Positions 10,765-37,151 of a DNA stretch of 64,000 nt are shown one piece after another. The notes below the pieces were generated by a model. The model saw nothing but the letters and a program-made list of their open reading frames with translations, did no database searches and was not told where the DNA came from. Origin of the DNA: an uncultured Eubacteriales bacterium (GTDB lineage Bacteria; Bacillota; Clostridia; Christensenellales; UBA1242); assembly GCA_949878485.1 (NCBI GenBank), contig CATLAM010000006.1, positions 6,914 through 70,913 on the forward strand, read 5' to 3'. The position numbers and the translations under genes were made by a program. Within the stretch, counting starts at the first letter, position 1, and the number at the start of each line of letters is the position of its first letter.

Positions 10765-10847
10765 TTAATAATAAAATACTCTGGTGATGTAAATTGCCTT
10801 ATTTTCCTAGGTTTTACGGCATTTTAAACGAGTTAAAATTTAAATTT

Positions 10848-10878
10848 ATAAAACTTTTATAAAAAACTTTATAAAAAT
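10848..10878. repeat. about 2.7 tandem copies of a 12-bp AT-rich unit (ATAAAA(A)ACTTT)
   Basis: ATAAAACTTTT / ATAAAAAACTTT / ATAAAAATG read directly, just outside the proposed left island end. Confidence 0.4.
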
Positions 10879-10941
10879 GCTACAAAAATTATTAATTAAG
10901 ATACAAGTTATCTTTCTGGTTGGTTTATTTTTAGATAGAAT

Positions 10942-10974
10942 AAGTGGACAAAGTTGCAAAATCTTTGCCCACTT
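10942..10974. terminator. hairpin just past the int stop codon
   Basis: AAGTGGACAAAG / CTTTGCCCACTT arms (1 mismatch) with a 9-nt loop. The T-run is stronger on the plus side, so it may also block read-in from the flank. Confidence 0.4.
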
Positions 10975-10996
10975 ATATTTTTTATTTTTTACTTTA

Positions 10997-12430
10997 TTAG
11001 CAATATAATAGTTGATTTATTAAATTGCTTGCATTTTTATCGGCTTCTTTTGTGTAGTGTGTGTAAATATTTAATGTTGTATTTGTATCACTATGTCCAG
11101 CTCTTGCTGATACTGTTTTTATATCCATACCACGAGTAAGTTGCATGGTAATATTTGTGTGCCTTAGCCCATGCGGAGTAATTTCTTTCAGTCCATTTTT
11201 TTGTTCAAACTGTTTTAACCATCTAAAAGTTGTTGCTCCTGCCATATTTGAGCCATCCCATCTTACAAATAGTCTATCGGTATTTGCCCATAAGTTGGCA
11301 TATTTTATTTTTTCACTATCCCAAAATTTTTTGTAATCTTTTAATAATGTTACAACTCCACTTGGAATGCTAATTGTTCTGTTAGAATTTTTTGTTTTTG
11401 TATTTTTAGTTACAACCCCTATGCCACAAGCATATATACTATTTCTTGAAATTGTTACTAGTTCTCTTTCAAAATCAAAGTCTTTCCATTCTAAACCTAC
11501 CAACTCTGCGTTGCGAACACCCAAAGCAATCATTAAAGTAAATGCAACTTTTTTTCTAATATCTGTTTCATTGTTTATGCAATCTACAAAATGTTTTATA
11601 GTTTCCGTGTCATCTAATATTTCTTTTTTACCAGAAGAACCTTTTTTAATAGGACGAATAAAATCACTAGAAGCATAATTGACACTAATTATACCTTGCC
11701 TTACTGCATCTCTAAGTATCGTATGTAGCATTATTTTAATTGCATTATTTGAGCCTCTTGAATATGGAACTTGCTCACTTTCGGCTTTAAAATAATCTTC
11801 AAAATTTATTTTTAAACCTCTACATATTTTTTTAGCCGTTTCCCTTTTTAATTTATTACCAACTTTATAAGCAACCTCTATGGTAGTATCAGCCAATTCA
11901 CATAATTTTGCACAAGATTGAGTAGTTAGGTTTTTTGCAGTAACCAAATCTCTTATGCTTTGCTTCACGGTTATAGTTTCTTTTTTATGAGTTCGTTCGC
12001 ATAGCCAATTGCAAAAGTCTTGTATTATAATTTGATTTAAACCCCTTAAAGTGTATTTGCCTAATTTATCTTTAAAAATTTTTAAATAGCCTTTGCAACT
12101 ATTATAATAAGAATAGCCTTGTTCGTGGTATATTAAAATATCTTCTACCCACTTTTCAGCAAATTCATAAAATCCTATGTCTTCCATAGGCTTGTTTAAA
12201 ATTCCATTTGAAAGCCTTTCAGTTTGTTCTTTTAAGTCTAATTGACATTTTAGTTTATACGATTCAATTTCTTTTTTGCCCTTTAAGTGATTAGGTACTT
12301 TATATGTTTTAACTTTTTGTTTAAATTTTTTTGTTAAAGGGTCTTTATAGTTGCACCAAAATACAAATGAAAGTTCGCCTTTTTGATTATATCGTTCTTC
12401 TGTGTGCATTAAATCATTTTTATTCTTCAT
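10997..12430 (-). CDS. int: tyrosine site-specific integrase, Tn916-Int-like architecture
   Basis: Catalytic R (LGVRNAEL), HGLRHT, and GHSDTNTTLNIYTHY (Tyr nucleophile). Start MKNKNDL at ATG 12430 with GAGG 7 nt upstream, overlapping the xis stop. 8 Trp codons, all TGG. Confidence 0.9.
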   Translation of the reverse strand: MKNKNDLMHTEERYNQKGELSFVFWCNYKDPLTKKFKQKVKTYKVPNHLKGKKEIESYKLKCQLDLKEQTERLSNGILNKPMEDIGFYEFAEKWVEDILIYHEQGYSYYNSCKGYLKIFKDKLGKYTLRGLNQIIIQDFCNWLCERTHKKETITVKQSIRDLVTAKNLTTQSCAKLCELADTTIEVAYKVGNKLKRETAKKICRGLKINFEDYFKAESEQVPYSRGSNNAIKIMLHTILRDAVRQGIISVNYASSDFIRPIKKGSSGKKEILDDTETIKHFVDCINNETDIRKKVAFTLMIALGVRNAELVGLEWKDFDFERELVTISRNSIYACGIGVVTKNTKTKNSNRTISIPSGVVTLLKDYKKFWDSEKIKYANLWANTDRLFVRWDGSNMAGATTFRWLKQFEQKNGLKEITPHGLRHTNITMQLTRGMDIKTVSARAGHSDTNTTLNIYTHYTKEADKNASNLINQLLYC

Positions 12431-12641
12431 CTGGTACCTCAATAATTTTTCCACCTAAAAATATTATAAGTGAATTGACATCAACTAAAATTTTGCTTGA
12501 ATTAATTATGCAATCTATTTTTCCACTTTTGCATAATTGTCTAATAAATCACTCGCTTACTGCGGTATTTTTGTCAAGCGACCTTAATTCATCCATACAA
12601 CCTTTTATGGTTTTTAATTCTGGCATAATTTTTTTAAACAT
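12420..12641 (-). CDS. xis: excisionase-like HTH protein; needs sense decoding of one in-frame TGA (codon 31)
   Basis: Not in the track. AAGGAG + ATG 12641. 73 codons if TGA (12549-12551) is read as Trp: ...DKNTAVSE(W)FIRQLCKSGKIDCIINSSKILVDVNSLIIFL... The TAA stop overlaps the int ATG (ATGAAGAATAA). Confidence 0.7.
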
Positions 12642-12662
12642 ATTTTTTGCTCCTTTTTTTTT

Positions 12663-12691
12663 ATATTAATTTCATTTTTTAAAAAGTTCAA
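12663..12691 (-). promoter_or_regulatory. putative xis-int promoter
   Basis: Minus strand TTGAAC-N17-TAATAT, about 20 nt upstream of the xis SD. Confidence 0.4.
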
Positions 12692-12799
12692 GGGTTTTGA
12701 AAGGTGTTTTTCAAGTTGTTTTAAGTTTGCCAAGTTTTTTTAGTAAAAGTATTATAAATGCCTTGCTTTAAGCTTGATTTTTGTTTATAATATTTTATA

Positions 12800-12819
12800 A
12801 ATCATATTTAAATATGATT
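12800..12819. promoter_or_regulatory. perfect 20-bp palindrome, probable operator
   Basis: AATCATATTTAAATATGATT. It overlaps a TTGCTA-N17-TATATA promoter-like element (12818-12846) upstream of the 12883 HTH gene, in the divergent xis/regulator intergenic region. Confidence 0.5.
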
Positions 12820-12882
12820 GCTAATTATATTTTTGATTACTATATATATAATCATTCTAGACTTTTTTGCGGGAGGTAAACC

Positions 12883-13863
12883 ATGGATAATTTATCTAAT
12901 ACTTTTAAAACTAATTTGCAAAAACTTTTGGCTGATAATAAGATATACATTAACAAGAAAAACCTTTCTTCTTCTATCGGCTATAAAACTGCAAACTCTA
13001 TAACAAAAGACTTAAATGGAAGCAAAGAGCCTTTTTGGCAAAAGGCTTGTAAGTGCATTGAATACCTTTATTCTAATGTTCCTTGCTTTACTTTAAACAA
13101 CCTTATTCCAACCATGGAAGAAAAGCAAGAAGATAAAAAAAGTTTTGCAGAACTTGAAAAGGACTACAAAACCTTAAAATCTAATTATGAGCAACTTGAA
13201 AAGAAATATAATAATCTTTACCAGTTTGCCAACTTTATTAACATAATTAAAAACCTTTCAAACGAAAGGCAGGATACTTTATTTAATTTAATGTCAGCCG
13301 AATGCTTTGCTGACTTTTTAACCAAACTAAGAGATTATTCACATAGAGCATTAATATTTGATAAGAATAATAAAAAATCTCATTATTCAAACACTTTTAT
13401 ATTTAAACCTTACAACTATAATACTTTTGCTTATGCTGATGCTTTATGCCAGCAAACAATACTTGCTTTAAGGCTTAAATATAGATTAAAAAACCAAGAC
13501 GAATATGATAGAACAGAAGAAGAAAAAAAACAAAAACGTATTGAAGAAAAGATAAACGAAATTAAAATTACAGGGAAAAGAAGAACTGTTAAAATGCGAA
13601 TTAAAAATTTACTTGAAGAAACTAGTAATGCTGACAATAAAAAGGAATTTAGAAAAGATAGATTTAATGACCTAACTCGTTGGAAATTTAACCCTTTGGA
13701 CTTTAAAGATAATACTCTTTGGAACTATGATTTTATCGATTATAAAACCCTTTATAAAAAACAATTAGCAGAATTTATCGAAGAAGAATTTGGTAAAGAG
13801 TACTCACAAAAATATTTAAAAAAATCGATGAAAGATGAAAACGACGATATATTTAAAACTTAA
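12883..13863 (+). CDS. island regulator candidate: N-terminal Xre-like HTH plus long charged/coiled-coil C-terminal region
   Basis: GGGAGG SD + ATG. The first ~60 aa resemble an HTH_3 pattern (LQKLLADNKI..NKKNLSSSIGYKTANSITKDLNG). Divergent from xis-int. 3 Trp codons, all TGG. Confidence 0.5.
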   Translation: MDNLSNTFKTNLQKLLADNKIYINKKNLSSSIGYKTANSITKDLNGSKEPFWQKACKCIEYLYSNVPCFTLNNLIPTMEEKQEDKKSFAELEKDYKTLKSNYEQLEKKYNNLYQFANFINIIKNLSNERQDTLFNLMSAECFADFLTKLRDYSHRALIFDKNNKKSHYSNTFIFKPYNYNTFAYADALCQQTILALRLKYRLKNQDEYDRTEEEKKQKRIEEKINEIKITGKRRTVKMRIKNLLEETSNADNKKEFRKDRFNDLTRWKFNPLDFKDNTLWNYDFIDYKTLYKKQLAEFIEEEFGKEYSQKYLKKSMKDENDDIFKT

Positions 13864-13868
13864 ATTAC

Positions 13869-13899
13869 AATGCGTCTATGAGCTTGTTAAATGCGTCTA
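13869..13899. repeat. two direct copies of AATGCGTCTA 21 bp apart (third copy at 15581-15589)
   Basis: Read directly; a relatively GC-rich motif in AT-rich intergenic DNA between convergent island genes. Confidence 0.5.
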
Positions 13900-13937
13900 C
13901 AATCAATCGCGACATTTAACTTAATAAAATATATTGC

Positions 13938-14108
13938 TTATTGCATTTCGTCCGTTAAACTTTCAGTTTTTATAATCTTTAAAATTTCTTTCAACCCTTT
14001 CAAATCAAATGTTTGAATTGAAATTTCTAAAAATGTTTTTAAATCTTTCTCTAAAAGGCTTAATAAAATCTCTATTAAGTCTTTTTCATATTCTTGTTCA
14101 ACTTTCAT
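13938..14108 (-). CDS. hypothetical small protein (56 aa), last gene of the island minus-strand operon
   Basis: Below the track cutoff. GGAG SD 7 nt before ATG 14108; MKVEQEYEKDLIEILLSLLEKDLKTF...; TAA stop. Confidence 0.45.
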   Translation of the reverse strand: MKVEQEYEKDLIEILLSLLEKDLKTFLEISIQTFDLKGLKEILKIIKTESLTDEMQ

Positions 14109-14131
14109 TTTGCTTACTCCTTTTAAATTAA

Positions 14132-14476
14132 TTAGTCGGCTATTAATTCAAAATATGGAAAGCCTTTTGTAAACTTTTCATTTGCTATTTGTAAATCTTT
14201 TTTCAACTTACATACTTTTAACCACTTGCAAGGCTCAATCAAATTTAGTTGTTTTAAAAATACAAAATCGTTATTGAGAGAAAGGTTAAAACTATTTTTA
14301 ATTTCTTTTGCAGTTTGTTCGGCATCATAATCACTCATACCAGCACGAATTACAATAAGGTTATTATCAAAATGACCTTCCGCAACTTTATAATTTTTTA
14401 TAATCTCGTCTATTTGTGTTTTTGTTAAAACACTCTTTTTTATTATTATGTCAATAAAGCCATAGCCAAAAACCAT
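14132..14476 (-). CDS. hypothetical protein (114 aa)
   Basis: Start set at MVFGYGF (ATG 14476, AAGGGGGG SD), 13 nt after the upstream stop. The longer track ORF overlaps the upstream gene. Confidence 0.55.
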   Translation of the reverse strand: MVFGYGFIDIIIKKSVLTKTQIDEIIKNYKVAEGHFDNNLIVIRAGMSDYDAEQTAKEIKNSFNLSLNNDFVFLKQLNLIEPCKWLKVCKLKKDLQIANEKFTKGFPYFELIAD

Positions 14477-14489
14477 TTTTTGCCCCCCT

Positions 14490-14975
14490 TTAAACAAATT
14501 CAACTTTCTCGCAAGATAAATTTGTAAGCCTAATTTTATTATCAATATCAAGTAGTTGCGTTTTAATGTTTTTGCAGTTAATTTTTTGTGTGTAAATTTC
14601 TTTACAATCAATAGAAGATAGGCAAGTAATTTGTTTGCACTTTAAAATATTTCCACTTATGTTTTTATGTATTAATATGCTTTCACAAACACACCAATCT
14701 TTTATAATTAAGTCGTCAGCAAATATTTTATTGCAAGTAAAAGAATAGTTAAAAGTAATTGTTTTTGCCTTTACATACACGCAACAATCATAGTCTTTTT
14801 TGCTTACTTTTTGGCATTCATAAACTAAGTCAACAGCACAATTAAATAAAACATCAACTTTCTCGCCATTTTCTATAAACTCAAATATAATTTGTTTATG
14901 CTTTCCGTCGTGCTTATCTGCTGGCACTATTTTAACATATCTTTCTAATTCTTCTAGTTTATTTATCGTTATCAT
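14490..14975 (-). CDS. hypothetical Cys-rich protein (161 aa)
   Basis: AAGGAG SD; about 14 Cys spread through a beta-rich-looking sequence; no family recognised. Confidence 0.55.
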   Translation of the reverse strand: MITINKLEELERYVKIVPADKHDGKHKQIIFEFIENGEKVDVLFNCAVDLVYECQKVSKKDYDCCVYVKAKTITFNYSFTCNKIFADDLIIKDWCVCESILIHKNISGNILKCKQITCLSSIDCKEIYTQKINCKNIKTQLLDIDNKIRLTNLSCEKVEFV

Positions 14976-15037
14976 TTTAACTCCTTATTTAAAGCGGATT
15001 TATTATTTTTAAGGGGAAGTTTATGTTATTATTAATA

Positions 15038-15544
15038 TCAAGTAGGGCAGTTCTTATCAAGCCAATCAAACCAATATTTATCTAAAATATGTGGTGCAAA
15101 ATCAACATACAATTTGCTTAAAAATTTAATAGCCAACTTTTCAATTATAAATTTTCTTGCAGTGTTTGAAAGAAATAAATTAATATTTTCTTGTCTTTGC
15201 TTTTTTGAAATGTTTTCTATATCTAAATTTAGTTTAAAAGTATCGTTGACTATTTTCATAAATCTATCGTCTTCAACCAGTTCTTCAAAAATCATATTTG
15301 AAAGTGATTTTGATATATTCTCATACTTGCTATATAAAAATATCTGCAACCCATATTTTTTAAACTTTTCAGCTGAAATAACCTTATAGACATTTCCCAA
15401 CTTTTCAACTGCACCATATTTTATTAAATCTTCCAAGGTAGATTTAGCCTTTGGAAAACTCCACTTAAAAAACCTTTGCAATGTTGCAATGCCAAAATTA
15501 TCTAAATTTATTAAGTCATTAAACTTCTCAATATTGCTTTTCAT
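15038..15544 (-). CDS. hypothetical protein with N-terminal FtsK-gamma-like winged helix
   Basis: GIATLQRFFKWSFPKAKSTLEDLIKYGAVEK resembles the FtsK gamma pattern (LQRxxxxGYxRAxxxxDxLExxGxV). Ends TGA-TAT-TAA. Confidence 0.45.
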   Translation of the reverse strand: MKSNIEKFNDLINLDNFGIATLQRFFKWSFPKAKSTLEDLIKYGAVEKLGNVYKVISAEKFKKYGLQIFLYSKYENISKSLSNMIFEELVEDDRFMKIVNDTFKLNLDIENISKKQRQENINLFLSNTARKFIIEKLAIKFLSKLYVDFAPHILDKYWFDWLDKNCPT

Positions 15545-15680
15545 ATAAACTCCTTTGTATCGGTTAGTACAAGCCGTTTAAATGCGTCTTACACCGTTCT
15601 TAATATTGTGTTTATATATTTTATTGCTTTTACATTTTGTGCTTTTAAACGCTAAGTTTTAATATCTAGTATTTTGTTTT

Positions 15681-15715
15681 TTTAAAGTAAAAGACAGCAA
15701 AAATACATTGCTGTC
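15681..15715 (-). terminator. rho-independent terminator after the 325-aa membrane protein gene
   Basis: GACAGCAA / TTGCTGTC 8-bp stem, 7-nt loop, TTTT tract on the minus strand; overlaps the stop codon. Confidence 0.5.
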
Positions 15716-16692
15716 TATTTATAGCCTAGGCTTTTTCTACACTTCTTAAAACCCTCAGTTTTACAAGCCCCATAGTGTGGACATTGAATACAACCAGCAG
15801 GACCAAAATCATTTCTTCTTGCGTTTCTTTCTGCCTCTCTATTTGCTCGTTTTTGTTCATCTAATTGTTTTTGCATAATTTCAGTTTGCTTTCTTGCTTC
15901 TCGTTGTAAATTTTGTTGATGTTCTTGTGCCTCTTGTTGCAATCTATAATTTGTTTCTTCATCTTTTATTGCTCTCTGTCTAATTTCATATTCCAGCATT
16001 TTTCTTTGCCTTTGCTGTTCTTTCAATATCTTCTTTTCTCTTTCGTCTTTAATAAATATTTCTATAGCCTCTTTTATATTGTCGGCTCGACCCATCTCAA
16101 AAATATTTATAAACTCTCTTGCGTTTTCTAGAACAACATCAGGATAATGAGAAAACTTTTTGCTGTTTTCTTTTAATAATAATACCTTTTTATCAATATT
16201 TTCTCTGTTTTTTTGTTTTATTTCATTTACTTTTTTCTTATATAATTCTTCTAAGCGTTCATACTTTTCTTGGTATCTCTCGTCATACTCTGATTTCCAT
16301 TGCCTATATTTTTTGTTGCTTATTTTTTCTATAATTATTTGTATAAGATTATAAATATCTATTACTAAACAAACTACAACCACAATTATAGCGGCTCCAA
16401 GGATTATTTGACCAACCAACTTACTCAAATAATCATTTGTATTAGTCATAATTAAATAAAAGAAAATTCCAACGATTATACTTATTGGCAAAACTATTGC
16501 ATTTGCTATGAAAGCATCAACTGTTTTGCCTCCTCTTGACTTCGGAGCATCCTTATAGCTTACTTTTAGCCGTTTTTCAAACCACTCTTCCTCATCTGGT
16601 AAATCTAGATATTCATACTTAGCTTGAATTGAATTATAAGTATCATTATATTCATTTAATTCTTTTAGTATTGTCTGTACAGAATTATCCAT
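15715..16692 (-). CDS. hypothetical membrane protein: 2 TM helices, long Q/E/R/K coiled coil, C-terminal Cys cluster
   Basis: Hydrophobic spans IANAIVLPISIIVGIFFYLI and ILGAAIIVVVVCLVIDIY; coiled coil about aa 130-290; C-terminus GCIQCPHYGACKTEGFKKC. Confidence 0.55.
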   Translation of the reverse strand: MDNSVQTILKELNEYNDTYNSIQAKYEYLDLPDEEEWFEKRLKVSYKDAPKSRGGKTVDAFIANAIVLPISIIVGIFFYLIMTNTNDYLSKLVGQIILGAAIIVVVVCLVIDIYNLIQIIIEKISNKKYRQWKSEYDERYQEKYERLEELYKKKVNEIKQKNRENIDKKVLLLKENSKKFSHYPDVVLENAREFINIFEMGRADNIKEAIEIFIKDEREKKILKEQQRQRKMLEYEIRQRAIKDEETNYRLQQEAQEHQQNLQREARKQTEIMQKQLDEQKRANREAERNARRNDFGPAGCIQCPHYGACKTEGFKKCRKSLGYK

Positions 16693-16716
16693 TACAACTC
16701 CTTATGATACAACCTT

Positions 16717-16745
16717 ATTATATATATTTCTCAATAAAAAGTCAA
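16717..16745 (-). promoter_or_regulatory. promoter of the 15715-16692 gene
   Basis: Minus strand TTGACT-N17-TATAAT, consensus-like. Confidence 0.55.
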
Positions 16746-16790
16746 ATATATTTACTACAAGTCAATAAAATATTTAATTTAAAGTCAATT
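16739..16790. promoter_or_regulatory. three AAGTCAA (TTGACTT) boxes at 20- and 23-bp spacing, putative operator array
   Basis: GTCAA at 16741, 16761 and 16784 in the divergent region between the membrane-protein gene and xre. The first box doubles as the -35. Confidence 0.4.
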
Positions 16791-16807
16791 TGGAACTATC
16801 TTCTAAA

Positions 16808-16835
16808 TTAGCACGACCTCAATATCATTTATAAT
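16808..16835 (+). promoter_or_regulatory. putative xre promoter
   Basis: TTAGCA-N16-TATAAT followed by AAAGGAGG SD. Confidence 0.4.
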
Positions 16836-16860
16836 TAATTGTAATAAAGGAGGTTAGGCT

Positions 16861-17169
16861 ATGGACAATAATGAACTTATAAACCGAATAGGCTTTATTA
16901 GAAATCGTGCAAATTTGTCGGCAAGAAAACTATCAATGGAAATAGGCAAAAATGAGTGCTATATTCATAGACTTGAAACAAGCAAAACATTTGCTCCAAC
17001 CTTTGAAACTTTAATGGATATTTTAGAGGCTTGTAATACTACCACCGAAGAATTTTTTTATTATAATATTTCAGCTTATAAACAAGATGAGGAAATATTA
17101 CAACTTTTAGAAACTGCCAGCCCAGAAAAGAAAACTGCAATCATTTCATTATTAAAATTAAAACAATAA
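16861..17169 (+). CDS. Xre-family HTH transcriptional regulator
   Basis: 102 aa; IGFIRNRANLSARKLSMEIGKNECYIHRLETSK is a typical HTH_3 pattern; strong SD. Confidence 0.75.
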   Translation: MDNNELINRIGFIRNRANLSARKLSMEIGKNECYIHRLETSKTFAPTFETLMDILEACNTTTEEFFYYNISAYKQDEEILQLLETASPEKKTAIISLLKLKQ

Positions 17170-17172
17170 AAA

Positions 17173-17199
17173 AGAAGGCTTGATACTTTTCAGCCCTCT
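17173..17199. terminator. hairpin between convergent genes; contains CTTGATAC (pC194/pUB110-type nick-site sequence)
   Basis: AGAAGGC / GCCCTCT arms (1 mismatch), 13-nt loop TTGATACTTTTCA, T-rich tail. CTTGATA at 17179-17185 spans the stem-loop junction. Confidence 0.45.
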
Positions 17200-17206
17200 T
17201 TTATTT

Positions 17207-17782
17207 TTAATATTTCTTTGTGAAATAATCTTTACCTGCTTGCCATAAATAAATATCTAGTTGTCTTAAAGTAAAGTCGTTTAACTTATAAAATTCTCTA
17301 AATGCGTTTAAAATAGAATAGAACTTTTTGTAATCTCTACAATCTTCATAAGAGAATTTGAAAAACTTATCTTGCTTATTTAAGTGCATTAGCATTTTTG
17401 CCACATAACTATCAAATATAGGAAATTCATTGCCAAGATGATGAACACAATATTTGGTTGCAAAAGAGTATATATTCCTGTTTATGCCGTTTTTTGTTTT
17501 GTCAGCAATATCATTTACAACAGACAAATCTTTTGCTTTTAATTTTTTATCTATGTTTAGCGAAACAATATACTCGGCTACCTTATATGTATTAAATATA
17601 TTTGTGCTATAAAAGTCATTGAGTATATTAACCTTTAATAAAACTTCGCTAATATCATTATTGTTAGGGTAAAGGGCAAACAACTTTTTTAATGCCTTTT
17701 CTTGTTCTACATAGTTTGATTGCGTATCGCAAAGCATTAAATACTTTTCAACTTCTGCTTTGCATGGCTTTTTTATCTCCAT
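17207..17782 (-). CDS. hypothetical protein (191 aa)
   Basis: Own TTGACA promoter and AAGGAG SD; helical-looking; no family recognised. Confidence 0.55.
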   Translation of the reverse strand: MEIKKPCKAEVEKYLMLCDTQSNYVEQEKALKKLFALYPNNNDISEVLLKVNILNDFYSTNIFNTYKVAEYIVSLNIDKKLKAKDLSVVNDIADKTKNGINRNIYSFATKYCVHHLGNEFPIFDSYVAKMLMHLNKQDKFFKFSYEDCRDYKKFYSILNAFREFYKLNDFTLRQLDIYLWQAGKDYFTKKY

Positions 17783-17804
17783 ATATACTCCTTTTATCTA
17801 TTCA

Positions 17805-17834
17805 ATCATAACATACAACTACATATTTTGTCAA
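17805..17834 (-). promoter_or_regulatory. promoter of the 191-aa gene
   Basis: Minus strand TTGACA-N18-TATGAT with TG two bases upstream of the -10. Confidence 0.5.
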
Positions 17835-17868
17835 ACAAAACGAATAAGTGTTTACTATAAATAGATAA

Positions 17869-17904
17869 AAAATAAAAGTAAGTTGTTATACCTACTTTTA
17901 TTTT
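17869..17904 (-). terminator. terminator after rep (12-bp perfect stem)
   Basis: AAAATAAAAGTA / TACTTTTATTTT with a 12-nt loop and a T-tract on the minus strand, 69 nt after the rep TAA. Confidence 0.55.
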
Positions 17905-17972
17905 GAGTTATTTTATGGCTAACTACATTAATTTTAGCCAAGATTATTTGTGTTTTAACAATATAATCATAT

Positions 17973-18800
17973 TTAAGTATTATTTTGTTTATTATCTACC
18001 ATTGCTATATTAGATGTTTTAAGCCTTTCAACTAGCCTTTGCATAAAATCTTTTTCACTAGGTAAATATATTTTATCCAAATAATATGTTAATTTATTAT
18101 CATTATTTAAAAAGTAATGCCCATTTTCAAAAGTATTGTAGTCAAGTACACCAATATATTCTTTGTATTGCTCTTCTAAAATACTATATAATAAGTTTTC
18201 GTCAATCTCAAATGCTGGTACATCAATATTTTTAATTCCTTGACTTCAAGTTATTATTCTTGCACCTATGGGAAAATAGGTATAAAAGCGATTGCCTTGT
18301 TGGATTGTATCATCTTTATATTTGGTAATATATTTTATTAAGCCTTGTATATTATAGGCATTTTTAATATTGACGAATCCATAACCTCAAAACTTTTTAA
18401 TATCATGATAACCTATTTTTAATTTTTCTTCATTCAATAATATTATATGTATGTGGAAAAAGTGGCTTGTGCCTTGCACTTCAATAGCCCTTATATATTT
18501 AATATTGTCGCCATAATTCCGCCTTATGCTTTTTATAAATTGTTTAAAGGCATTTAGGACTCTGTCAAACTCTATATAATGTTCAAAGGTAAGCGTAATT
18601 CATTTAGCAAAATAATTTGTCAAGTCCAGTTTATATAGTTCATATCTTTTGCGATTGATTGTTCTATTATAATCTTTTCTATCCATATTTAGTTTAGGCT
18701 TATCGCTACGCCTTAACCCATTTCACTTTTTATCTGCCTTTTCAGTATTAAATTTTTTTGAAACAATAATCATTCCGTTTGCAAATTCAATTTTGTACAT
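17973..18800 (-). CDS. rep: HUH rolling-circle replication initiator / relaxase-like Rep; needs sense decoding of four in-frame TGA codons
   Basis: Not in the track. GGAGG (18809-18813) + ATG 18800. 275 codons to TAA if TGA at codons 26, 67, 138 and 185 are read as Trp. Motifs WITLTF, HFFHIHIIL (HUH), GLIKYITKY. No TGG, no TAA/TAG, no frameshift. Confidence 0.75.
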
Positions 18801-18993
18801 TTTATATTCCTCCGTTTTGTTGAGCAATGCTCGTATATAGTTTAGCCTCGCAAGAACATTATTTAAAACTACTTTATATTAATAAAGATTTTAGGTGCTT
18901 GTTCTAAAAAATATATAATAATTTTTATAAAAATATTTTACTGAAATTTAGAAAATTTAAATTAAACTACAAATTTTAGAAATTTTATATAAT

Positions 18994-19034
18994 TTACACA
19001 AGTTGCAACTCAAATTAGGAAAGTTACACAAGTT
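18994..19034. repeat. two direct copies of TTACACAAGTT 30 bp apart, upstream of rep near the right island end
   Basis: 18994-19004 and 19024-19034, with a 10-bp palindrome AGTTGCAACT between them. AAATTT(T)AGAAA(A)TTT is also duplicated at about 18945 and 18971. Confidence 0.5.
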
Positions 19035-19073
19035 ATTTTAAAAAACAAAAGTTAAAATTTCTAGATTAATTAA

Positions 19074-19451
19074 TTAATAAATAAACATAGAAGCGATAAA
19101 TGCCCCAGCAATGGAAAAACACAAAAGAATTTTCAACCAATGCAGAATTTTGTATTTTTTCATTTTCTTGTTGTAATCTTTCTTGAAAGCAGTTTCGTTT
19201 TCATTGAAATAATCAGAAGTAATTTGTTTTTTATTTATAGTTTCCGCTTTGTAAAATTTAAAATTTTCTTCTAATTCTGTTTTGAAATCGGTGAAATATT
19301 TGTAAATAAGCCAACCACCCCAAAAGAAACTTAGAAGCATTGCAAATGCCATGGCAAAATATACAAAACCTGTCCATGTTTGAACAAGAATTGCACTTAT
19401 GCCAGCAAGCAAAACCAAAATAATTGTGACAATGTAAGGTATTTTAGACAT
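19074..19451 (-). CDS. hypothetical small membrane protein
   Basis: 125 aa, 3 predicted TM spans. Confidence 0.55.
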   Translation of the reverse strand: MSKIPYIVTIILVLLAGISAILVQTWTGFVYFAMAFAMLLSFFWGGWLIYKYFTDFKTELEENFKFYKAETINKKQITSDYFNENETAFKKDYNKKMKKYKILHWLKILLCFSIAGAFIASMFIY

Positions 19452-19870: not shown

Positions 19871-21454
19871 CTATTTTGCAGTTTCAGAGAATCTGCTTTC
19901 TCTGATTACATTGACTTTAATTTGCCCAGGATATTGCATTTCATTTTCAATCTTAGTGGCAATTTCTTTTGCCATAAACATTGCTTCGCTGTCAGAAATT
20001 TTGTCTGGTTTAACAATGATTCTTACTTCTCTTCCTGCTTGAACGGCATAAGATTTGTCAACACCTTCAAAACCATTTGCAATTTCTTCAAGTTGTTGAA
20101 GTCTTTTGATATAGTTTTCAAAACTATCTCTTCTTGCACCAGGTCTTGAACTTGAAATGGCATCAGCCACTTGAACAATGACTGCTTCAATTGTTCTGAA
20201 TTCAACATTAAAGTGGTGTGCTTCAATGCAGTGAACAACATCTTCGTTTTCTCCGCATTTTCTGGCAAGTTCCACACCGATTTGAACATGAGTTCCTTCC
20301 ATTTCGTGGTCAAGAGCCTTTCCAATGTCGTGTAAAAGACCACCACGTTTAGCAATTTTTACATTTGCACCAAGTTCGCTGGCAAGAAGCCCAGCAATGA
20401 TGGAAGTTTCCACAGAGTGTTTTAAAACATTTTGTCCATAACTTGTTCTGTATTTCAAACGACCAAGAGTTTTCAAAATTTCAGGATGAAGGTTGAATAT
20501 GCCTGTTTCGTTGCATGCTTCATCACCTGCTTGTTTGATGATTTTGTCAACTTCGCGTTGCATTTTTTCCACAATTTCTTCAATGTGAGTTGGATGAATT
20601 CTTCCATCAGAAATAAGTTTTTCCAAAGATAATCTTGCAACTTCTCTTCTGATTGGGTCAAATCCAGAAACTGTGATTGTTTCAGGAGTGTCATCAACAA
20701 TAAGTTCAACACCAGTTGCCGCTTCAATGGCACGAATGTTTCTGCCTTCACGACCGATAATTCTTCCTTTCATTTCGTCATTTGGAAGAGCAACAACAGA
20801 AACTGTCATTTCGGTTGTAGTTTCAGTTGCACATCTTTGAAGGGCTTGTCCAACAATTTCTCTAGCTTTCTTTTCGCCGTTTTCTCTGGCTTCATCTTCA
20901 ATTTGCTTAACAATGGAAACCGCTTCTTTTTGCGCTTCTGTTTTCATATTTGAAATCAGAAGGTCTTTGGCTTCTTGTTTAGACATTTTGGAAATTTTTT
21001 CCAATTTTTCAAGGGCTTGTTCTTTCAAAATATCTTGTTCTTGTTTAGCCTTTTCCAAATTTTCTTTTGCTAAGTTAAGTTCTTTCTTTTCTTCTTCAAG
21101 TTGTTCAGTTTTTTTGTCAACAGCAAGTTCTTTCTTTTCAATGAATTCTTCTCTTTGATTTAAACGCTCTTCTTGTTTCAAAACTTCGTTTCTGCGTTCT
21201 TTAACTTCCTGTTCAACCTCTTCTTTAAGTTTTTGCGATTGTTCTTTGCTTTCAATAATCGCTTCCTTTTTGATAGTCTTTGCTTCTGCATACGCATCTT
21301 CAATGATTTTGATGGCATTAGACTTATTTTTTTGTAATTTTTTACTGCTGTAAATTTTAAAACCAACAAATCCAATTATTACACCAACAATACATGTTGC
21401 AATGGCAATAATGGATACGATTGCAGGAGCGACATTCAATAAAATCATATTCAT
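19871..21454 (-). CDS. rny: ribonuclease Y
   Basis: N-terminal TM, long coiled coil, KH (GRIIGREGRNIRA) and HD (LLHDIGKA) domains. Confidence 0.9.
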   Translation of the reverse strand: MNMILLNVAPAIVSIIAIATCIVGVIIGFVGFKIYSSKKLQKNKSNAIKIIEDAYAEAKTIKKEAIIESKEQSQKLKEEVEQEVKERRNEVLKQEERLNQREEFIEKKELAVDKKTEQLEEEKKELNLAKENLEKAKQEQDILKEQALEKLEKISKMSKQEAKDLLISNMKTEAQKEAVSIVKQIEDEARENGEKKAREIVGQALQRCATETTTEMTVSVVALPNDEMKGRIIGREGRNIRAIEAATGVELIVDDTPETITVSGFDPIRREVARLSLEKLISDGRIHPTHIEEIVEKMQREVDKIIKQAGDEACNETGIFNLHPEILKTLGRLKYRTSYGQNVLKHSVETSIIAGLLASELGANVKIAKRGGLLHDIGKALDHEMEGTHVQIGVELARKCGENEDVVHCIEAHHFNVEFRTIEAVIVQVADAISSSRPGARRDSFENYIKRLQQLEEIANGFEGVDKSYAVQAGREVRIIVKPDKISDSEAMFMAKEIATKIENEMQYPGQIKVNVIRESRFSETAK

Positions 21455-21575: not shown

Positions 21576-22865
21576 TTAGACTGCTTCTTGGTCTTTTTGT
21601 TTCTTAATTAAAACTGGTTCTCCATTGTTTTCAATAAAATCACGAGTGATGATGATTTTGTCATAAATTTCAGGGTCAGGAAGGTCAAACATAAGTTCCA
21701 ACATCTTAGTTTCCATAATTGTTCTAATTCCCCTTGCACCTGTCTTGAGTTCGATTGCTTTTTGAGCAATATAAGCAATGGCTTCATCTTCAAACTTAAT
21801 TTCGAAACCGTCAATTTTAAACATCTGTTGATATTGCTTAATAAGTGAATTTTTAGGTTCAACCAAAATTCTTTGCAAAGCCTTATCGTCAAGGTTGTCA
21901 AGACCAGTAACGATTGGAAGTCTGCCTACAAATTCAGGAATAAGTCCAAATTTGATTAAATCATCTGGCTGAACATCTTTTGCAAAATCAACTTTGGCTT
22001 TTTCGTCAGAGTTTTTAATGTTTGCATTGAAACCAATGGCAGTGGAAGAAAGTCTTTTATGAATGATGTCCTCCAATCCAACAAATGCACCGCCACAAAT
22101 AAACAAAATGTTTGTGGTGTCAATTTGAAGCATTTCTTGTTGTGGATGTTTTCTTCCGCCTTGTGGAGGAACGCTTGCAACAGTGCTTTCAATAATTTTC
22201 AACAATGCTTGTTGAACGCCTTCTCCACCGACATCGCGAGTAAGCGAACGGTTTTCGCTTTTTCTTGCCACTTTGTCAATTTCGTCAATATAGATTATTC
22301 CTCTTTGTGCCTTTTCAATGTCATAGTCAGCATTCTGAATAAGTTTTAAAAGCACATTTTCCACATCTTCGCCAACATATCCCGCTTCCGTCAAAGTAGT
22401 GGCATCAGCACAAGCGAAAGGAACATCCAAAATTCTTGCCAAGGTTTTAACAAGAAGTGTTTTTCCAGAACCTGTTGGGCCAATCATTAAGACGTTGCTT
22501 TTTTCAAGTTCCAAAACATTTTGGTTTTTGGTGTCATCCTTATTTTTCTTAGATGCGTTGATTTTGTTGTGATAGTTGTAATTAATTCTTTTGTAATGAT
22601 TAAAGACAGCAACAGAAAGCACTTTCTTTGCTTGCTCTTGCCCAATTACAAATCCGTCTAAACTTTTCTTTATTTCTTTAGGAGAAGGAATTGTAAGGTC
22701 TTTAAAAACCCTTAATTTCATGCTTTCTTCTTTGATGATGTCAGAGCAAATTCTTATGCAGTCATCACAGATGAAAGAATCACCATTTGGGCTGGCAATA
22801 AGTTTTTTTGCGGCTTTCTGTGGTCTTCCACAAAAAGAACATGTGCACATTTCAATATCTTTCAT
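21576..22865 (-). CDS. clpX: ATP-dependent Clp protease ATP-binding subunit ClpX
   Basis: N-terminal C4 zinc finger CSFCGR..CDDC; Walker [11 protein letters not shown]; IIYIDEIDK. Confidence 0.92.
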
Positions 22866-23559: not shown

Positions 23560-24822
23560 TTATTTTTCATCTTCGTCTACATAGACGATTTTGTAATTTG
23601 ATTTCAAGAAATCTTGAAGTTTTTTAAACAATAAATCGTTTTCTTTCATCTTGATTTCTCTTTCATCTGTAATGTTTTTTGTTTCTGCTTTAAGTTCTTT
23701 TTCATCAACTGTGATGTTGTTGTCAGCAATGATTTTTCTGTAAATGTAGCGCGCTTTAATTTGTTTTAAAGTGTCTTCTCTAAGATGACTTACATATTGT
23801 TCTGCTGTTTCGTTGATTGAAGCAAGATATTGGTCGAGAGTCATGTTGTATTGTTGCAATGCTTCTTGCATATTTTGAATTGAATACATAAGATGATTGT
23901 CAACCATAATGTCTGGAATTTCAATCTTAGTGTTTTCAACAAGATAATTTCTGCCGTTAACTTGGATTTCATTTTCCAAACTTTTGTCGTTCATATCTTG
24001 AATATGAGCAATTACACTCTTTCTATACTCTTCCACAGTTTCAAATTCTGTCGTATCAGAGACAAATTTGTCAGTAAGTTCTGGCAAGTGTCTTTCTCTT
24101 ACATCTTTTAAAGTTGCTTTAAACACAACTTGTTTGCCTGCAAGTTCTGTTGCAAAATATCCTTCTGGAAATGTTGTAACAATGTCGAATTCGTCACCTT
24201 TTTTGTGACCAACAATTGATTCTTCAAACCCAGGGATATATCTTTTTGCGCCAAGTTCAATGACAGAGTCTATGCTTGTTCCGCCTTCAAACGCCACTCC
24301 ATTCAAATAACCAGCATAATCCACAACTACACTGTCACCATTTTGTGCTGGTCTGTCAACTGAGTTATATGTGACTCCTTCTTCAAGAAGATGACCTATG
24401 TGGTGTTGGATTTGTTCTTCTGTAACTTTTGGGCTTTTGTGAACTTTGATTTCCGCACCTTTATAGTTGCAAAGTTCAAATTCAGGAACAATATGGAAAG
24501 TGATTTTGAATTTAAGTTCGCCATCTCTTGTGTAACTTTCAAGTTGAGTGGTAGGACGAGCAACTGGTTCATATTGTGGATATTCAGGCAAAATTTCATT
24601 CATTGTATGTTCCATAAAATGTTCAATTGCATCATCAAAAAAGACATTATCTCCATATTGTTTTTCAATCATTTTTCTTGGTGCATGACCTTTTCTAAAT
24701 CCGACTACATTATATTTAGATTTGGTTTCTTGATAGATATGTTCAAGCATATCTTCCAATTCTTCGTTGCTAACTGTTACATCAACATTTACTTTAGTGT
24801 TTTCTCTTGTTAACTTATACAT
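23560..24822 (-). CDS. tig: trigger factor
   Basis: Contains GFRKGHAPRKMIE ribosome-binding signature and an FKBP-type middle domain. Start MYKLTRE at ATG 24822 with GGAGG upstream. Confidence 0.88.
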   Translation of the reverse strand: MYKLTRENTKVNVDVTVSNEELEDMLEHIYQETKSKYNVVGFRKGHAPRKMIEKQYGDNVFFDDAIEHFMEHTMNEILPEYPQYEPVARPTTQLESYTRDGELKFKITFHIVPEFELCNYKGAEIKVHKSPKVTEEQIQHHIGHLLEEGVTYNSVDRPAQNGDSVVVDYAGYLNGVAFEGGTSIDSVIELGAKRYIPGFEESIVGHKKGDEFDIVTTFPEGYFATELAGKQVVFKATLKDVRERHLPELTDKFVSDTTEFETVEEYRKSVIAHIQDMNDKSLENEIQVNGRNYLVENTKIEIPDIMVDNHLMYSIQNMQEALQQYNMTLDQYLASINETAEQYVSHLREDTLKQIKARYIYRKIIADNNITVDEKELKAETKNITDEREIKMKENDLLFKKLQDFLKSNYKIVYVDEDEK

Positions 24823-25019
24823 ATTACCTCCGTAAGTTTTCATTTGGAAATTACCAAAAGAAATTTTAGCACAAACCTTTACAAAATGCAACCAATATTG
24901 CCATGATATTTGCGAATATTTTGTCGAAAAATAATAAATTATTTCACAAATTTGTCATTTCAAGTCTTAAAATTGCAAAAAAATGTCGAATAAAATTGCC
25001 TAAATGTGGCTTTAAAAGT

Positions 25020-25053: not shown

Positions 25054-26106
25054 ATGAAAAAGTTGAGTTTCTTTGATGAAAGAGATATAAAAAATATGCA
25101 AAAAATTGGCAAATACTTGTCAGAATTGCCAGAATATTGCTTTGATTTTTTCACAGGAATTGAAAATAACACTTCTTCCCTTACCCGTGTCAATTATGCC
25201 ATGGATTTAAGCGTTTTTTTTGAATATTTGGAAAAATATGTTGTCATGAAACCAAAGAAAGCAATTTTGCTTTCAGACATAAATGAACTTCAATCAAGAA
25301 ACATCGAAAATTATTTATCTTACCTTTCTTACTATAAATGTGATGACAAAATGTGTCGCAACACAGAACGCGGAAAAGCCCGAAAACTGGCAAGTTTACG
25401 CAGTTTTTTTAAATACCTTTTCAATCACGACATGATTACATCTAACGTGGCAAGCAAAGTGCCAACTCCAAAACTTCACAACAAAGAAATCATTCGCTTG
25501 GAAAAGGACGAAATGGAAAGAATGTTGGACACTGTTCAAGCACCCACAACTTTCAATAAACATCAACAAAATTACAATAAAAACACTAAAGAACGTGACA
25601 ATGCCATAGTTACTTTATTTCTTGGCACAGGCATAAGAATTTCTGAACTTGTTGGGCTTAATGTGGAAGATTTTGATTTTACCCAAAATGCCTTTAAAGT
25701 GACCAGAAAAGGTGGAAATCAAGCAATTTTATATTTTTCAAAAGAAGTTTATGATGCTTTAATGATTTGGCTGGAAAAACGCAAGACAATTCCCCTTCAA
25801 CCAGAAGAAAATGCCATGTTTATTTCTCTTCAAAACAAGCGTATTTGTGTGCGTGCAGTGGAAAATTTGGTTAAAAAGTTTGCCAAAGAAAGTGTTCCGC
25901 TTAAAAAAATCTCTCCACATAAATTGCGTTCTACCTTTGGCACAAATCTTTATCGTGAAACACAAGACATCTACATCGTTGCCGATGTGCTTGGACATAA
26001 AGATGTAAACACCACCAAAAAACACTATGCTGCAATCAATGAAGACATGAGAAAATCGGTGGCAAATAAGGTTTCTTTACGACAAAATAATAACACAGAA
26101 AACTAG
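25054..26106 (+). CDS. tyrosine recombinase, XerC/XerD-like
   Basis: GIRISELVGL (Arg), HKLRSTF, LGHKDVNTTKKHY (Tyr); 350 aa. Confidence 0.8.
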   Translation: MKKLSFFDERDIKNMQKIGKYLSELPEYCFDFFTGIENNTSSLTRVNYAMDLSVFFEYLEKYVVMKPKKAILLSDINELQSRNIENYLSYLSYYKCDDKMCRNTERGKARKLASLRSFFKYLFNHDMITSNVASKVPTPKLHNKEIIRLEKDEMERMLDTVQAPTTFNKHQQNYNKNTKERDNAIVTLFLGTGIRISELVGLNVEDFDFTQNAFKVTRKGGNQAILYFSKEVYDALMIWLEKRKTIPLQPEENAMFISLQNKRICVRAVENLVKKFAKESVPLKKISPHKLRSTFGTNLYRETQDIYIVADVLGHKDVNTTKKHYAAINEDMRKSVANKVSLRQNNNTEN

Positions 26107-34755: not shown

Positions 34756-35121
34756 TCAAAATGCATTTTCAATATGATTAATGTTGTCATCCAAAACTTC
34801 AATTACATCAAATCTAACATCATTATAAAACTGATTATTTTTCTGTAAATAAATTTCTGCAACAGTTCTGATTTTATTTTGTTTATAAAAGTTGACCGCT
34901 TCAACAGGTCTGCCAAAATCGGCATTCTTTCTTGCTTTAACTTCCACAAAAACAATAGTTTTGCCTTGTCTTGCAATTATGTCTATTTCTCCAAAATAGT
35001 TTTTATAATTCAATTCCAAAATTTGATAACCTTTCTGCTTCAAAAAATTTTGAACAGAAATTTCTCCAATGTCACCTTTAATTTTGTTTTGAATTTTTCT
35101 GAAGTCTTTTATTCCAAACAT
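34756..35121 (-). CDS. yraN: YraN-family (UPF0102) endonuclease-like protein
   Basis: 121 aa; GEIDIIA..VFVEVKAR pattern; TGA stop. Confidence 0.75.
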   Translation of the reverse strand: MFGIKDFRKIQNKIKGDIGEISVQNFLKQKGYQILELNYKNYFGEIDIIARQGKTIVFVEVKARKNADFGRPVEAVNFYKQNKIRTVAEIYLQKNNQFYNDVRFDVIEVLDDNINHIENAF

Positions 35122-35982: not shown

Positions 35983-36654
35983 CTATTTTTTGTTGTTCAA
36001 CAAATCCTTTCGCAATTTTTCAGTTCTCTCTAGGCTTTGCTGTTTTCTCCATTTTTCCACTTCTTGATGATTGCCAGAAACCAAAACTTCTGGCACTTTA
36101 AGACCTTCAAATTCTTGAGGACGAGTGTATTGTGGATATTCCAAAAGACCATTTGAGAAACTTTCATTTTCCAAACTTTCCTTAGTTATCACACCTTCCA
36201 CAAACCTTGACACACTGTCGATAATGACCATGCTTGGAAGTTCCCCACCAGTTAAAACATAATCTCCTATGGAAATTTGCTCTACATCAAAAAGTTGAAA
36301 AAATCGTTCGTCAATGCCTTCATAATGCCCGCAAACAAAAATCAAATGTTCACATTTAGAAAGGCTTTCCACTTTTTCCACATTAAGCGTCTTTCCAACA
36401 GGAGAAGGGAAAATGATTTTAGCACCTTTCTTATAAACAGAATTCACAGCATCAAAAACAGGCTGAACAGTCATCAGCATGCCTGCTCCGCCACCAAAAG
36501 GATAGTCATCACATTTTTTGTGCTTATCCTTAGAAAAATCCCTGATATTGATTAAGTTTATTTCCAAAATTCCACTGTCCACCGCTCTGCCAACAATGCT
36601 TGTTTGAAGTGGTGTAAATGCTTCTGGAAATAAAGTCAACACATCAATTTTCAT
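35983..36654 (-). CDS. trmD: tRNA (guanine37-N1)-methyltransferase
   Basis: MKIDVLTLFPE start; GHYEGIDER; YVLTGGELP. Confidence 0.92.
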   Translation of the reverse strand: MKIDVLTLFPEAFTPLQTSIVGRAVDSGILEINLINIRDFSKDKHKKCDDYPFGGGAGMLMTVQPVFDAVNSVYKKGAKIIFPSPVGKTLNVEKVESLSKCEHLIFVCGHYEGIDERFFQLFDVEQISIGDYVLTGGELPSMVIIDSVSRFVEGVITKESLENESFSNGLLEYPQYTRPQEFEGLKVPEVLVSGNHQEVEKWRKQQSLERTEKLRKDLLNNKK

Positions 36655-37151
36655 TCCTGTGCCACCTTTGCCCCATCAAATTCTTTTCTAATAACGCTGA
36701 TTTCTTTGCCTTTATGCTGAAAAATTGCTTTTCTGAAAGGCACTTCATAAAATCTTTCATCTTCACACTTTACAACTACAATGTCGTCAAATCCATAGTT
36801 TACAACATCCATAATTTGACCTGCAAGTTCTCCATTTTCATCATAAAGTATAATTCCAACCAAATCGTCAATCAAAAAATCGTCAACAGCAATTTTTTCA
36901 AATTCTTCTTTGGTTATAAAAACTTCCTTGTTGCGATATTTTTCAGCAACATTTCTGTCAGTGATTTCTTGAAAATGCACATAAGCATATCCAAGTCTGA
37001 ATGTTGCAGTTTTAAATGGAGTTTCTTTCTTTTCAATGTAAAGTGCATGCTTACCATTAAAAATCGCAGGGAGTTCAACAAGAGGTAAAATTTTTACTTC
37101 TCCCTTAATCCCCTGCGGTTTAATGATTTTTCCGACACAAACGAAATCCAT
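36651..37151 (-). CDS. rimM: 16S rRNA processing protein RimM
   Basis: VGKIIKPQGIKGEVK N-terminal pattern and PRC barrel; 4-nt overlap with trmD. Confidence 0.85.
   Translation of the reverse strand: MDFVCVGKIIKPQGIKGEVKILPLVELPAIFNGKHALYIEKKETPFKTATFRLGYAYVHFQEITDRNVAEKYRNKEVFITKEEFEKIAVDDFLIDDLVGIILYDENGELAGQIMDVVNYGFDDIVVVKCEDERFYEVPFRKAIFQHKGKEISVIRKEFDGAKVAQE

Follow-up and report, generated by a model that had tools for sequence, protein, structure and literature searches.

Is an excisionase-like reading frame that is interrupted by a stop codon a dead gene, or a gene that is to be read in another genetic code? This question is raised by a small minus-strand frame, here termed xis-like, directly upstream of a tyrosine integrase gene (int) in an 8.3-kb integrative element. 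The element lies in a 64,000-nucleotide stretch of DNA, the window of this analysis, from an uncultured Eubacteriales bacterium (positions 6,914 to 70,913 of contig CATLAM010000006.1, assembly GCA_949878485.1). A first-pass annotation had described the frame by its AAGGAG ribosome binding sequence, an ATG at 12641, a length of 73 codons, a lone TGA at 12549-12551 and the lack of any TGG codon, and every one of these sequence statements was found again. The relevant features are the following.

12641-12420, minus strand: xis-like gene, putatively encoding a recombination directionality factor (RDF); 73 sense codons, complete only if TGA codon 31 is read as tryptophan
12650-12655, minus strand: Shine-Dalgarno (SD) sequence AAGGAG of the xis-like gene, 8 nt 5' of the ATG (12641-12639)
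12549-12551, minus strand: in-frame TGA, codon 31, the sole in-frame stop, in the context AVSE-TGA-FIRQLCKSGKID
12436-12440, minus strand: SD sequence GAGGT of int, inside the 3' end of the xis-like gene
12420-12430, minus strand: 11-nt overlap of the xis-like stop and the int start, within ATGAAGAATAA

The TGG count of the frame is zero. Translation of codons 32-73 yields no methionine, and no GTG or TTG codon was seen in this region, the latter having been read by eye and not by script. There is thus no in-frame start downstream of the TGA, termination at this codon leaves a 30-residue peptide, and the conserved C-terminal 42 residues can be produced only via decoding of the TGA.

A decaying xis with a nonsense mutation, or an error in the assembly, would also present itself as a frame interrupted in the code of its host, and a public protein collection indeed holds a truncated, 30-aa standard-code call of the gene that ends at the TGA (P0085). 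Conservation refutes this explanation. In a word-indexed protein search with the tryptophan read-through peptide as query, seven proteins of 73-74 aa with 64-100% identity were retrieved, all of which have W at the codon-31 position; table 11 translation of their contigs does not reproduce the query. Codon 31 is TGA in 24 of 24 further loci, which represent seven distinct DNA variants of the gene, and one clade of variants contains a second TGA at codon 9. The TGA of codon 31 is invariant while nearby codons vary synonymously between variants (GAG/GAA, TTT/TTC, AGA/CGT, TTA/CTT). In addition, dN/dS ratios of 0.07-0.31 were obtained for codons 32-73 at dS values of 0.7-1.7; purifying selection acts on the gene downstream of the TGA. 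A relative with only 37% protein identity (locus L118) has a TGA at exactly the equivalent of codon 31, and copies of the element at different sites are 99.7% identical, pointing to recent mobility. Judged by its sequence, the frame is an intact, selected and real gene, and we see hardly any chance at all that it is a pseudogene or an assembly artifact.

The first-pass annotation had further placed the TAA stop of the frame across the int ATG at 12430, proposed a translationally coupled xis-int pair and expected that coupling into int would probably be lost upon termination at codon 31. The overlap exists: the TAA occupies 12422-12420, inside ATGAAGAATAA, and the int ATG 12430-12428. Moreover, comparison of the xis-int junctions of related elements revealed that the 11-nt overlap is kept in L011, L013 and L118, down to 48% Int identity, which is consistent with coupling. 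A strict dependence is not supported, as int has its own SD sequence; loss of coupling need therefore not abolish production of Int.

Which amino acid the TGA stands for can be read from the homologues. An exhaustive family profile search yielded 613 representatives at E ≤ 1e-3, and for the codon-31 column we aligned 61 sequences, i.e., three variants of the xis-like gene and 58 of the best profile matches. Of these family members, 21 have W in the column, 24 have Y and six have F. On other contigs, members with the sequence ..ITEWFIRQLC.. have TGG at this codon and translate correctly with table 11 (L031, L120, L121, L124 and L125). Because standard-code homologues carry TGG at the same column, the TGA is assigned to tryptophan, and to judge from this alignment codon 31 must be read in this way to yield the predicted DNA-binding domain. 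The first-pass view of a small conserved gene upstream of int, full-length only by reading TGA as sense and with homologues pointing to Trp, is thus borne out. When metagenomes were scanned with the half of the protein encoded after the TGA, only four relatives were obtained, none of them with a TGA. In the phage collection, xis matched a single record, which is unverified, 57 kb in length and of standard code, and whose residue in the Trp column is His. Selenocysteine was considered and rejected: the gene shows neither the Cys/Sec alignment nor the selenocysteine insertion sequence (SECIS) hairpin of selenoproteins, no SECIS-like fold being present downstream of the TGA (z = -0.38), and the column holds W, Y or F.

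Profile searches with the read-through peptide gave no direct indication of its identity. With either W or G at codon 31, it has no Pfam match at E ≤ 1, Tn916-Xis included, no NCBIfam match at E ≤ 0.1 and nothing significant in PHROGs; neither of the two profiles to which the first-pass annotation had pointed, HTH_17 and Tn916-Xis, was therefore matched. Among the 61 family members, 17 match HTH_17 (PF12728; best E 4e-5) and none matches Tn916-Xis at E ≤ 0.01; the apparent link of the protein to HTH_17 is transitive, through homologues, and not by a direct profile match. An AlphaFold2 model (pLDDT 78) comprises strand 9-11, helices 12-22 and 30-39, strands 44-46 and 51-54 and helix 55-61, and this predicted β-α-α-β-β-α arrangement is the winged helix of solved Xis proteins. 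The best Foldseek match in the PDB was Xis of mycobacteriophage Pukovnik (4J2N; probability 0.98, E 0.09, TM score 0.66), with BldC also found, the E-values being weak, as is usual for a protein so small. Viral structures matched in BFVD were helix-turn-helix (HTH), Excise and MerR-like proteins. Predicted helix 2 begins with W31, and by analogy with other HTH proteins we regard it as the recognition helix.

The gene lies directly upstream of the tyrosine recombinase gene in the copies of the window element, L118, L123 and L125 and has the same orientation, as expected of the small basic or HTH gene next to int that encodes an RDF. Based on fold and synteny, we concluded that its product is probably the excisionase-type RDF of the adjacent tyrosine integrase. 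Of the earlier proposal of a small HTH protein of the Tn916-Xis/MerR-excisionase type, the winged-helix fold and the likeness to Xis and BldC thus stand, and the Tn916-Xis and HTH_17 profiles do not. With Pukovnik Xis and HTH_17-type RDFs the protein shares its size, the predicted β-α-α-β-β fold and the place of its gene directly upstream of a tyrosine integrase; it differs from them in lacking a direct profile match, in an extra segment between helices 1 and 2 and in the in-frame UGA with which the presumed recognition helix begins.

An in-frame TGA would be trivial if the host itself used code 4 and the xis-like gene were an ordinary gene there, as the first-pass annotation implied by applying table 4 to this DNA. 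Public gene callers did use TGA as Trp on these contigs, and TGA stops are rare in the window (four of about 58 host open reading frames [ORFs]); low-GC relatives are, however, equally sparing with them. The host belongs to uncultured low-GC gut Clostridia, represented by 'Candidatus Caccovivens'-like metagenome-assembled genomes (MAGs) in a ComM scan with one genome per species. In about 55 kb of host DNA no ORF is split by a TGA, and about 95 TGG codons are used. TGA is the stop codon of rimM (36651-37151), which overlaps trmD in the classical ATGA arrangement, and also of the UPF0102/yraN gene (34756-35121), and in 80 related genomes TGA terminates 165 of 1245 long ORFs (13%). In addition, reassignment of UGA to Trp in Bacillota has been reported solely for Mycoplasmatales (PMC13092985). 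The host thus lacks both marks of a code-4 organism, in-frame TGA codons in housekeeping genes and disuse of TGA as a stop; it uses the standard code, and TGA use as a sense codon is restricted to particular genes of the element. We rejected host code 4 on the rimM and yraN stops, the unsplit host ORFs and the TGA stops of the relatives, and regard it as very improbable. Trp is very scarce in the host proteins (TGG at about 0.5%), and several of 400-600 aa have none, e.g., RNase Y (19871-21454), ClpX (21576-22865) and trigger factor (23560-24891).

The element that contains the xis-like gene spans positions 10765 to 19080, approximately, between a host gene of 125 aa (19074-19451) and comM, and is bounded by direct repeats.

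10765-10771, minus strand: TTATTAA repeat on the int side (attR-like), element end
19074-19080, minus strand: TTATTAA repeat on the Rep side (attL-like), element end; the flanking host gene has its stop codon within this repeat

An empty site was found in L032, the closest MAG (CATKYT01) with 95% ComM identity, in which the 125-aa gene lies directly upstream of comM, as it does in many other relatives. Elements of 97-99.9% identity are present at at least five other sites, bounded by TTATTAA-like repeats and usually located after T-rich terminators; near-identical copies at several sites indicate that the element moved recently. Metagenomes in which it is present include SRR13440541, SRR24675119, ERR3199634 and ERR3199589. 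It thus combines an integrase, flanking direct repeats, an empty site and several insertion sites, and the predicted circular junction of its excised form reads ...GTATTTTATTATTAA|TTAATTAATCTAG...

The xis-like gene is not the only one in the element with in-frame TGA codons. Replication and integration functions are encoded as follows.

17973-18800, minus strand: rolling-circle (HUH) replication initiator Rep, 275 aa; Pfam REP_ORF2-G2P, 1.2e-15; four TGA, no TGG
10997-12430, minus strand: tyrosine integrase Int, 477 aa; Pfam Phage_integrase, 1.5e-24; PHROG integrase; eight TGG, no TGA

The in-frame TGA codons of Rep are at 18723-18725, 18600-18602, 18387-18389 and 18246-18248. Two of the residues that they specify, W67 and W138, align with Trp residues that are invariant in plasmid Reps from Staphylococcus and Lactobacillus (motifs WxTLTY and WGxGF), and dN/dS is 0.08-0.21 in each of the segments between TGAs. 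A PDB sequence search with Rep returned nothing. Under table 11, the Rep region (17783-19073) would be 1.3 kb of DNA without an ORF of at least 50 codons.

Taken together, Rep and the xis-like gene contain five TGA and no TGG codons, and all other genes of the element no TGA and 19 TGG codons (eight in Int, 11 in the other eight genes; Fisher p = 2.4e-5). GC content and GC content at third codon positions (GC3, about 0.2) are uniform across the element genes, and we therefore rejected a foreign origin for Rep and xis. The partition persists in lineages with Int identities of 66% and 48%: across the three lineages, Int contains eight, eight and seven TGG codons, and none of its 23 Trp codons is TGA, with the neighboring xis keeping its TGA. 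At a GC3 near 0.2, TGG should give way to TGA in any gene that tolerates TGA. That int has no TGA at all therefore argues that Int is made where UGA terminates, and the dominance of TGA in Rep and xis that both genes are of use only where UGA specifies Trp. The element is thus written in two codes: Int and the other eight genes can be read in the standard code, and Rep (four to five UGAs) and the RDF gene (one to two UGAs) need UGA to be decoded as Trp.

The same arrangement is seen with another type of recombinase. In relatives with 76-81% nucleotide identity over the backbone, the tyrosine integrase is replaced by a large serine recombinase, whose start is overlapped by a small upstream gene with a TGA.

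L025:7310-8945, L026:7321-9226 and L116:1102-2338: serine-recombinase variant regions with the overlapping small TGA-containing gene upstream

The small gene encodes 62 aa, or 71 aa in a variant at 71% identity, and has one conserved in-frame TGA at codon 30; the serine recombinase uses TGG. Inspection revealed no resemblance of the product to the xis-like protein, and it has no Pfam match. Rep of these variants contains five TGA codons and one TGG. These sequences suggest convergence, i.e., that a TGA in the small gene upstream of the recombinase evolved twice, in unrelated genes associated with Tyr- and Ser-type enzymes.

One further element gene, of 170 aa, has a conserved TGA-TAT-TAA end (window 15032-15043, minus strand; L025:4936-4947). 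The TGA before the last codon is probably its real stop, and the arrangement resembles a tandem stop, by which extension under UGA suppression would be restricted to two residues.

Where, then, would UGA be decoded? ARAGORN detected no tRNA in the window, in 60 loci or in 12 element-bearing loci, and Rfam gave no match at E ≤ 10 that pointed to a tRNA. As no copy of the element encodes a tRNA, a suppressor would have to come in trans. On balance, we lean towards the reading that the genetic code gates excision and replication, both of which would require such a UGA suppressor. An ordinary host cell would make the integration and maintenance functions only, with excision and replication silent at the level of translation. 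Upon appearance of a UGA suppressor, Xis and Rep would be translated and excision and replication switched on; full translation of the RDF gene could then deliver ribosomes to the overlapping int start, such that Int and Xis would be raised together for excision. The most plausible source of the suppressor would be a UGA-recoded (code 4) phage, or another element with a tRNA(UCA), that co-infects the cell or resides in it.

Alternatively, UGA might be leaky in the host as such, the UGAs acting as constant attenuators that hold Xis and Rep at very low levels. Variants of tRNA-Trp(CCA) whose anticodon stem has 4 bp are present in diverse bacteria of the standard code, increase read-through of UGA in E. 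coli and go along with a lower use of UGA as a stop (PMC13092985). Such leakiness would accord with the small number of TGA stops in the window and would require no suppressor borne by the element. However, the scarcity of TGA stops is no greater than in low-GC relatives, and the lack of TGA among the 23 Trp codons of Int despite the low GC3 indicates that UGA is read through poorly where Int is made; at such levels, a Rep with four to five UGAs would essentially never be completed. Moreover, the xis UGA is followed by U, and UGA followed by U is a strong context for RF2-mediated termination in E. coli. We therefore consider host leakiness unlikely. prfB was not among ten further host proteins scanned with Pfam, to which the search was limited.

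As another alternative, excision and replication could take place in a code-4 donor, e.g., one of the Mycoplasmatales, and the copies in Clostridia could be one-way products in which only Int works. The partition would fit such a split, with Int written for standard-code recipients and Rep and Xis for code-4 donors. Furthermore, the Rep family REP_ORF2-G2P is named after the replication proteins ORF2 and G2P, the former of which we take to be that of Spiroplasma plectroviruses, which infect code-4 hosts. Yet all recovered flanks of the element (serS, mscL, formate/nitrite transporter, SDR and comM genes) use TGG and lack in-frame TGA, and no copy was found in a code-4 context. In what seems to be one host lineage, near-identical copies occupy many sites, and the same sample series also contains an empty site. 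A donor/recipient division is in our estimation quite improbable.

Several points also weigh against gating by a suppressor. A source of UGA suppression was not found in the window or in the element copies. The TGA at codon 31 is confined to two sublineages of the family, the five other lineages tested having TGG, and at a GC3 of about 0.2 a TGA in Rep or xis needs no positive selection once it is tolerated. The RDF activity is putative, deduced from predicted fold and gene position, and gating as an adaptation is a proposal based on the partition and the convergence. Finally, relatives of the element were found neither in IMG/VR (scanned with Int, Rep and the 161-aa and 326-aa proteins) nor in INPHARED and PLSDB (megablast with the whole element), so that there is no evidence that ties the element to any phage. 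With these reservations, gating in trans could be taken one step further: the element might be a satellite-like genetic-code sensor, devoid of a suppressor tRNA itself, that detects a code 4 helper phage or plasmid through the suppressor tRNA of the helper. Excisionase and Rep would be made only then, and the element would excise, replicate and spread with its helper or at the helper's expense. We put this forward tentatively, as possible but doubtful.

Stop-codon recoding has been proposed as a regulator of lysis and lysogeny in phages with their own suppressor tRNAs; here it is found in a minimal, non-viral integrative element. Borges et al. described alternatively coded prophages (Garnet, Topaz) and TGA-recoded gut phages (Agate, Jade) with TGA suppressor tRNAs, and TGA suppressor tRNAs were detected in only 35% of code-4 phages (10.1101/2021.08.26.457843). 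Based on recoded prophages with stop-free integrases, the code was proposed there to act as a switch between the integrated or lysogenic and the active state; the term excisionase does not occur in that paper (10.1101/2021.08.26.457843). The element shares with these prophages a standard-code host, in-frame stops that align with one amino acid and an integrase free of recoded stops. In contrast to them, it comprises 8.3 kb without recognizable virion genes, compared with 22 kb or more, confines TGA recoding to the RDF and Rep genes rather than to structural or lysis modules, and encodes no suppressor tRNA, release factor or aminoacyl-tRNA synthetase, i.e., none of the machinery for a change of code.

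In Firmicutes, there are integrative and mobilizable elements (IMEs) in which an integrase of the Tyr or Ser type is paired with a relaxase or an initiator of the rolling-circle Rep type. The element resembles them in its small size, in its int, RDF, HTH regulator and rolling-circle Rep genes, in variable cargo and in the swapping of Tyr and Ser modules among close relatives. We know of no IME reported with stop-codon recoding of mobility genes. Phage satellites of the phage-inducible chromosomal island (PICI) type are likewise small and integrated, encode an integrase, regulators and a replication initiator and, like the element in the proposed reading, are silent until a helper factor appears. 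PICIs respond to a helper protein by which the Stl repressor is inactivated; the signal proposed for the element is a tRNA, and packaging or capsid-remodeling genes were not recognized among its proteins with Pfam, PHROGs and NCBIfam. Five element proteins have no significant family match in these collections.

The element is thus a variant of stop-codon recoding that is minimal, limited to RDF and Rep, convergent over two recombinase types and without a suppressor of its own. Recoding is confined to exactly the two functions that move the element out of the chromosome, the RDF and Rep. If the gate were opened by the tRNA of another element, mobile elements would interact in a new manner, and a helper would be sensed by very simple means. 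There are also consequences for annotation: standard-code gene calling misses or shortens such genes, xis being absent from the gene track of the window, and metagenomic gene callers assign code 4 to entire host contigs on account of such an element.

The remaining genes of the element are listed below.

12883-13863, plus strand: 326-aa gene, divergent from xis-int; Trp encoded by TGG only; no significant family match
13938-16692, minus strand: five genes (56, 114, 161, 170 and 325 aa) with no function assigned; Trp encoded by TGG throughout
16861-17169, plus strand: XRE-family HTH protein, 102 aa; Pfam HTH_3, 3.6e-5
17207-17782, minus strand: 191-aa protein; precomputed Pfam HI_0787_N

Along the minus strand, the order is Rep, the 191-aa gene, the opposed XRE HTH gene, the five genes, the opposed 326-aa gene, xis-like and int. 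The MKNK N-terminus of Int is conserved. The 326-aa protein, whose N-terminus looks like an XRE-type HTH by eye, without profile support, is a candidate regulator of the element. A cargo slot is variable: it holds a gene for a 325-aa membrane/coiled-coil protein in the window (15715-16692, minus strand), one for a 250-aa protein with a lipoprotein-like signal peptide by eye in L001 (6170-6922) and a gene pair of 61 aa plus 293/296 aa in L003/L025.

Tandem Repeats Finder revealed no CRISPR array. A 23-nt tandem repeat is located downstream of int (10845-10888), TTACACAAGTT occurs twice near the Rep-side end (18994-19004, 19024-19034), and ACAAGTTAT and AAGTTGCAA are common to both element ends (10903, 10951, 19000); these repeats may be arm-type Int/Xis sites or Rep iterons. 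Outside the element, a second tyrosine recombinase of 350 aa (25054-26106, plus strand; Phage_integrase and SAM_1) looks XerC/D-like. In another host contig (L001:1-3793), the element adjoins a gene for another integrase (348 aa), serS and a CD-NTase (CBASS-type) gene.

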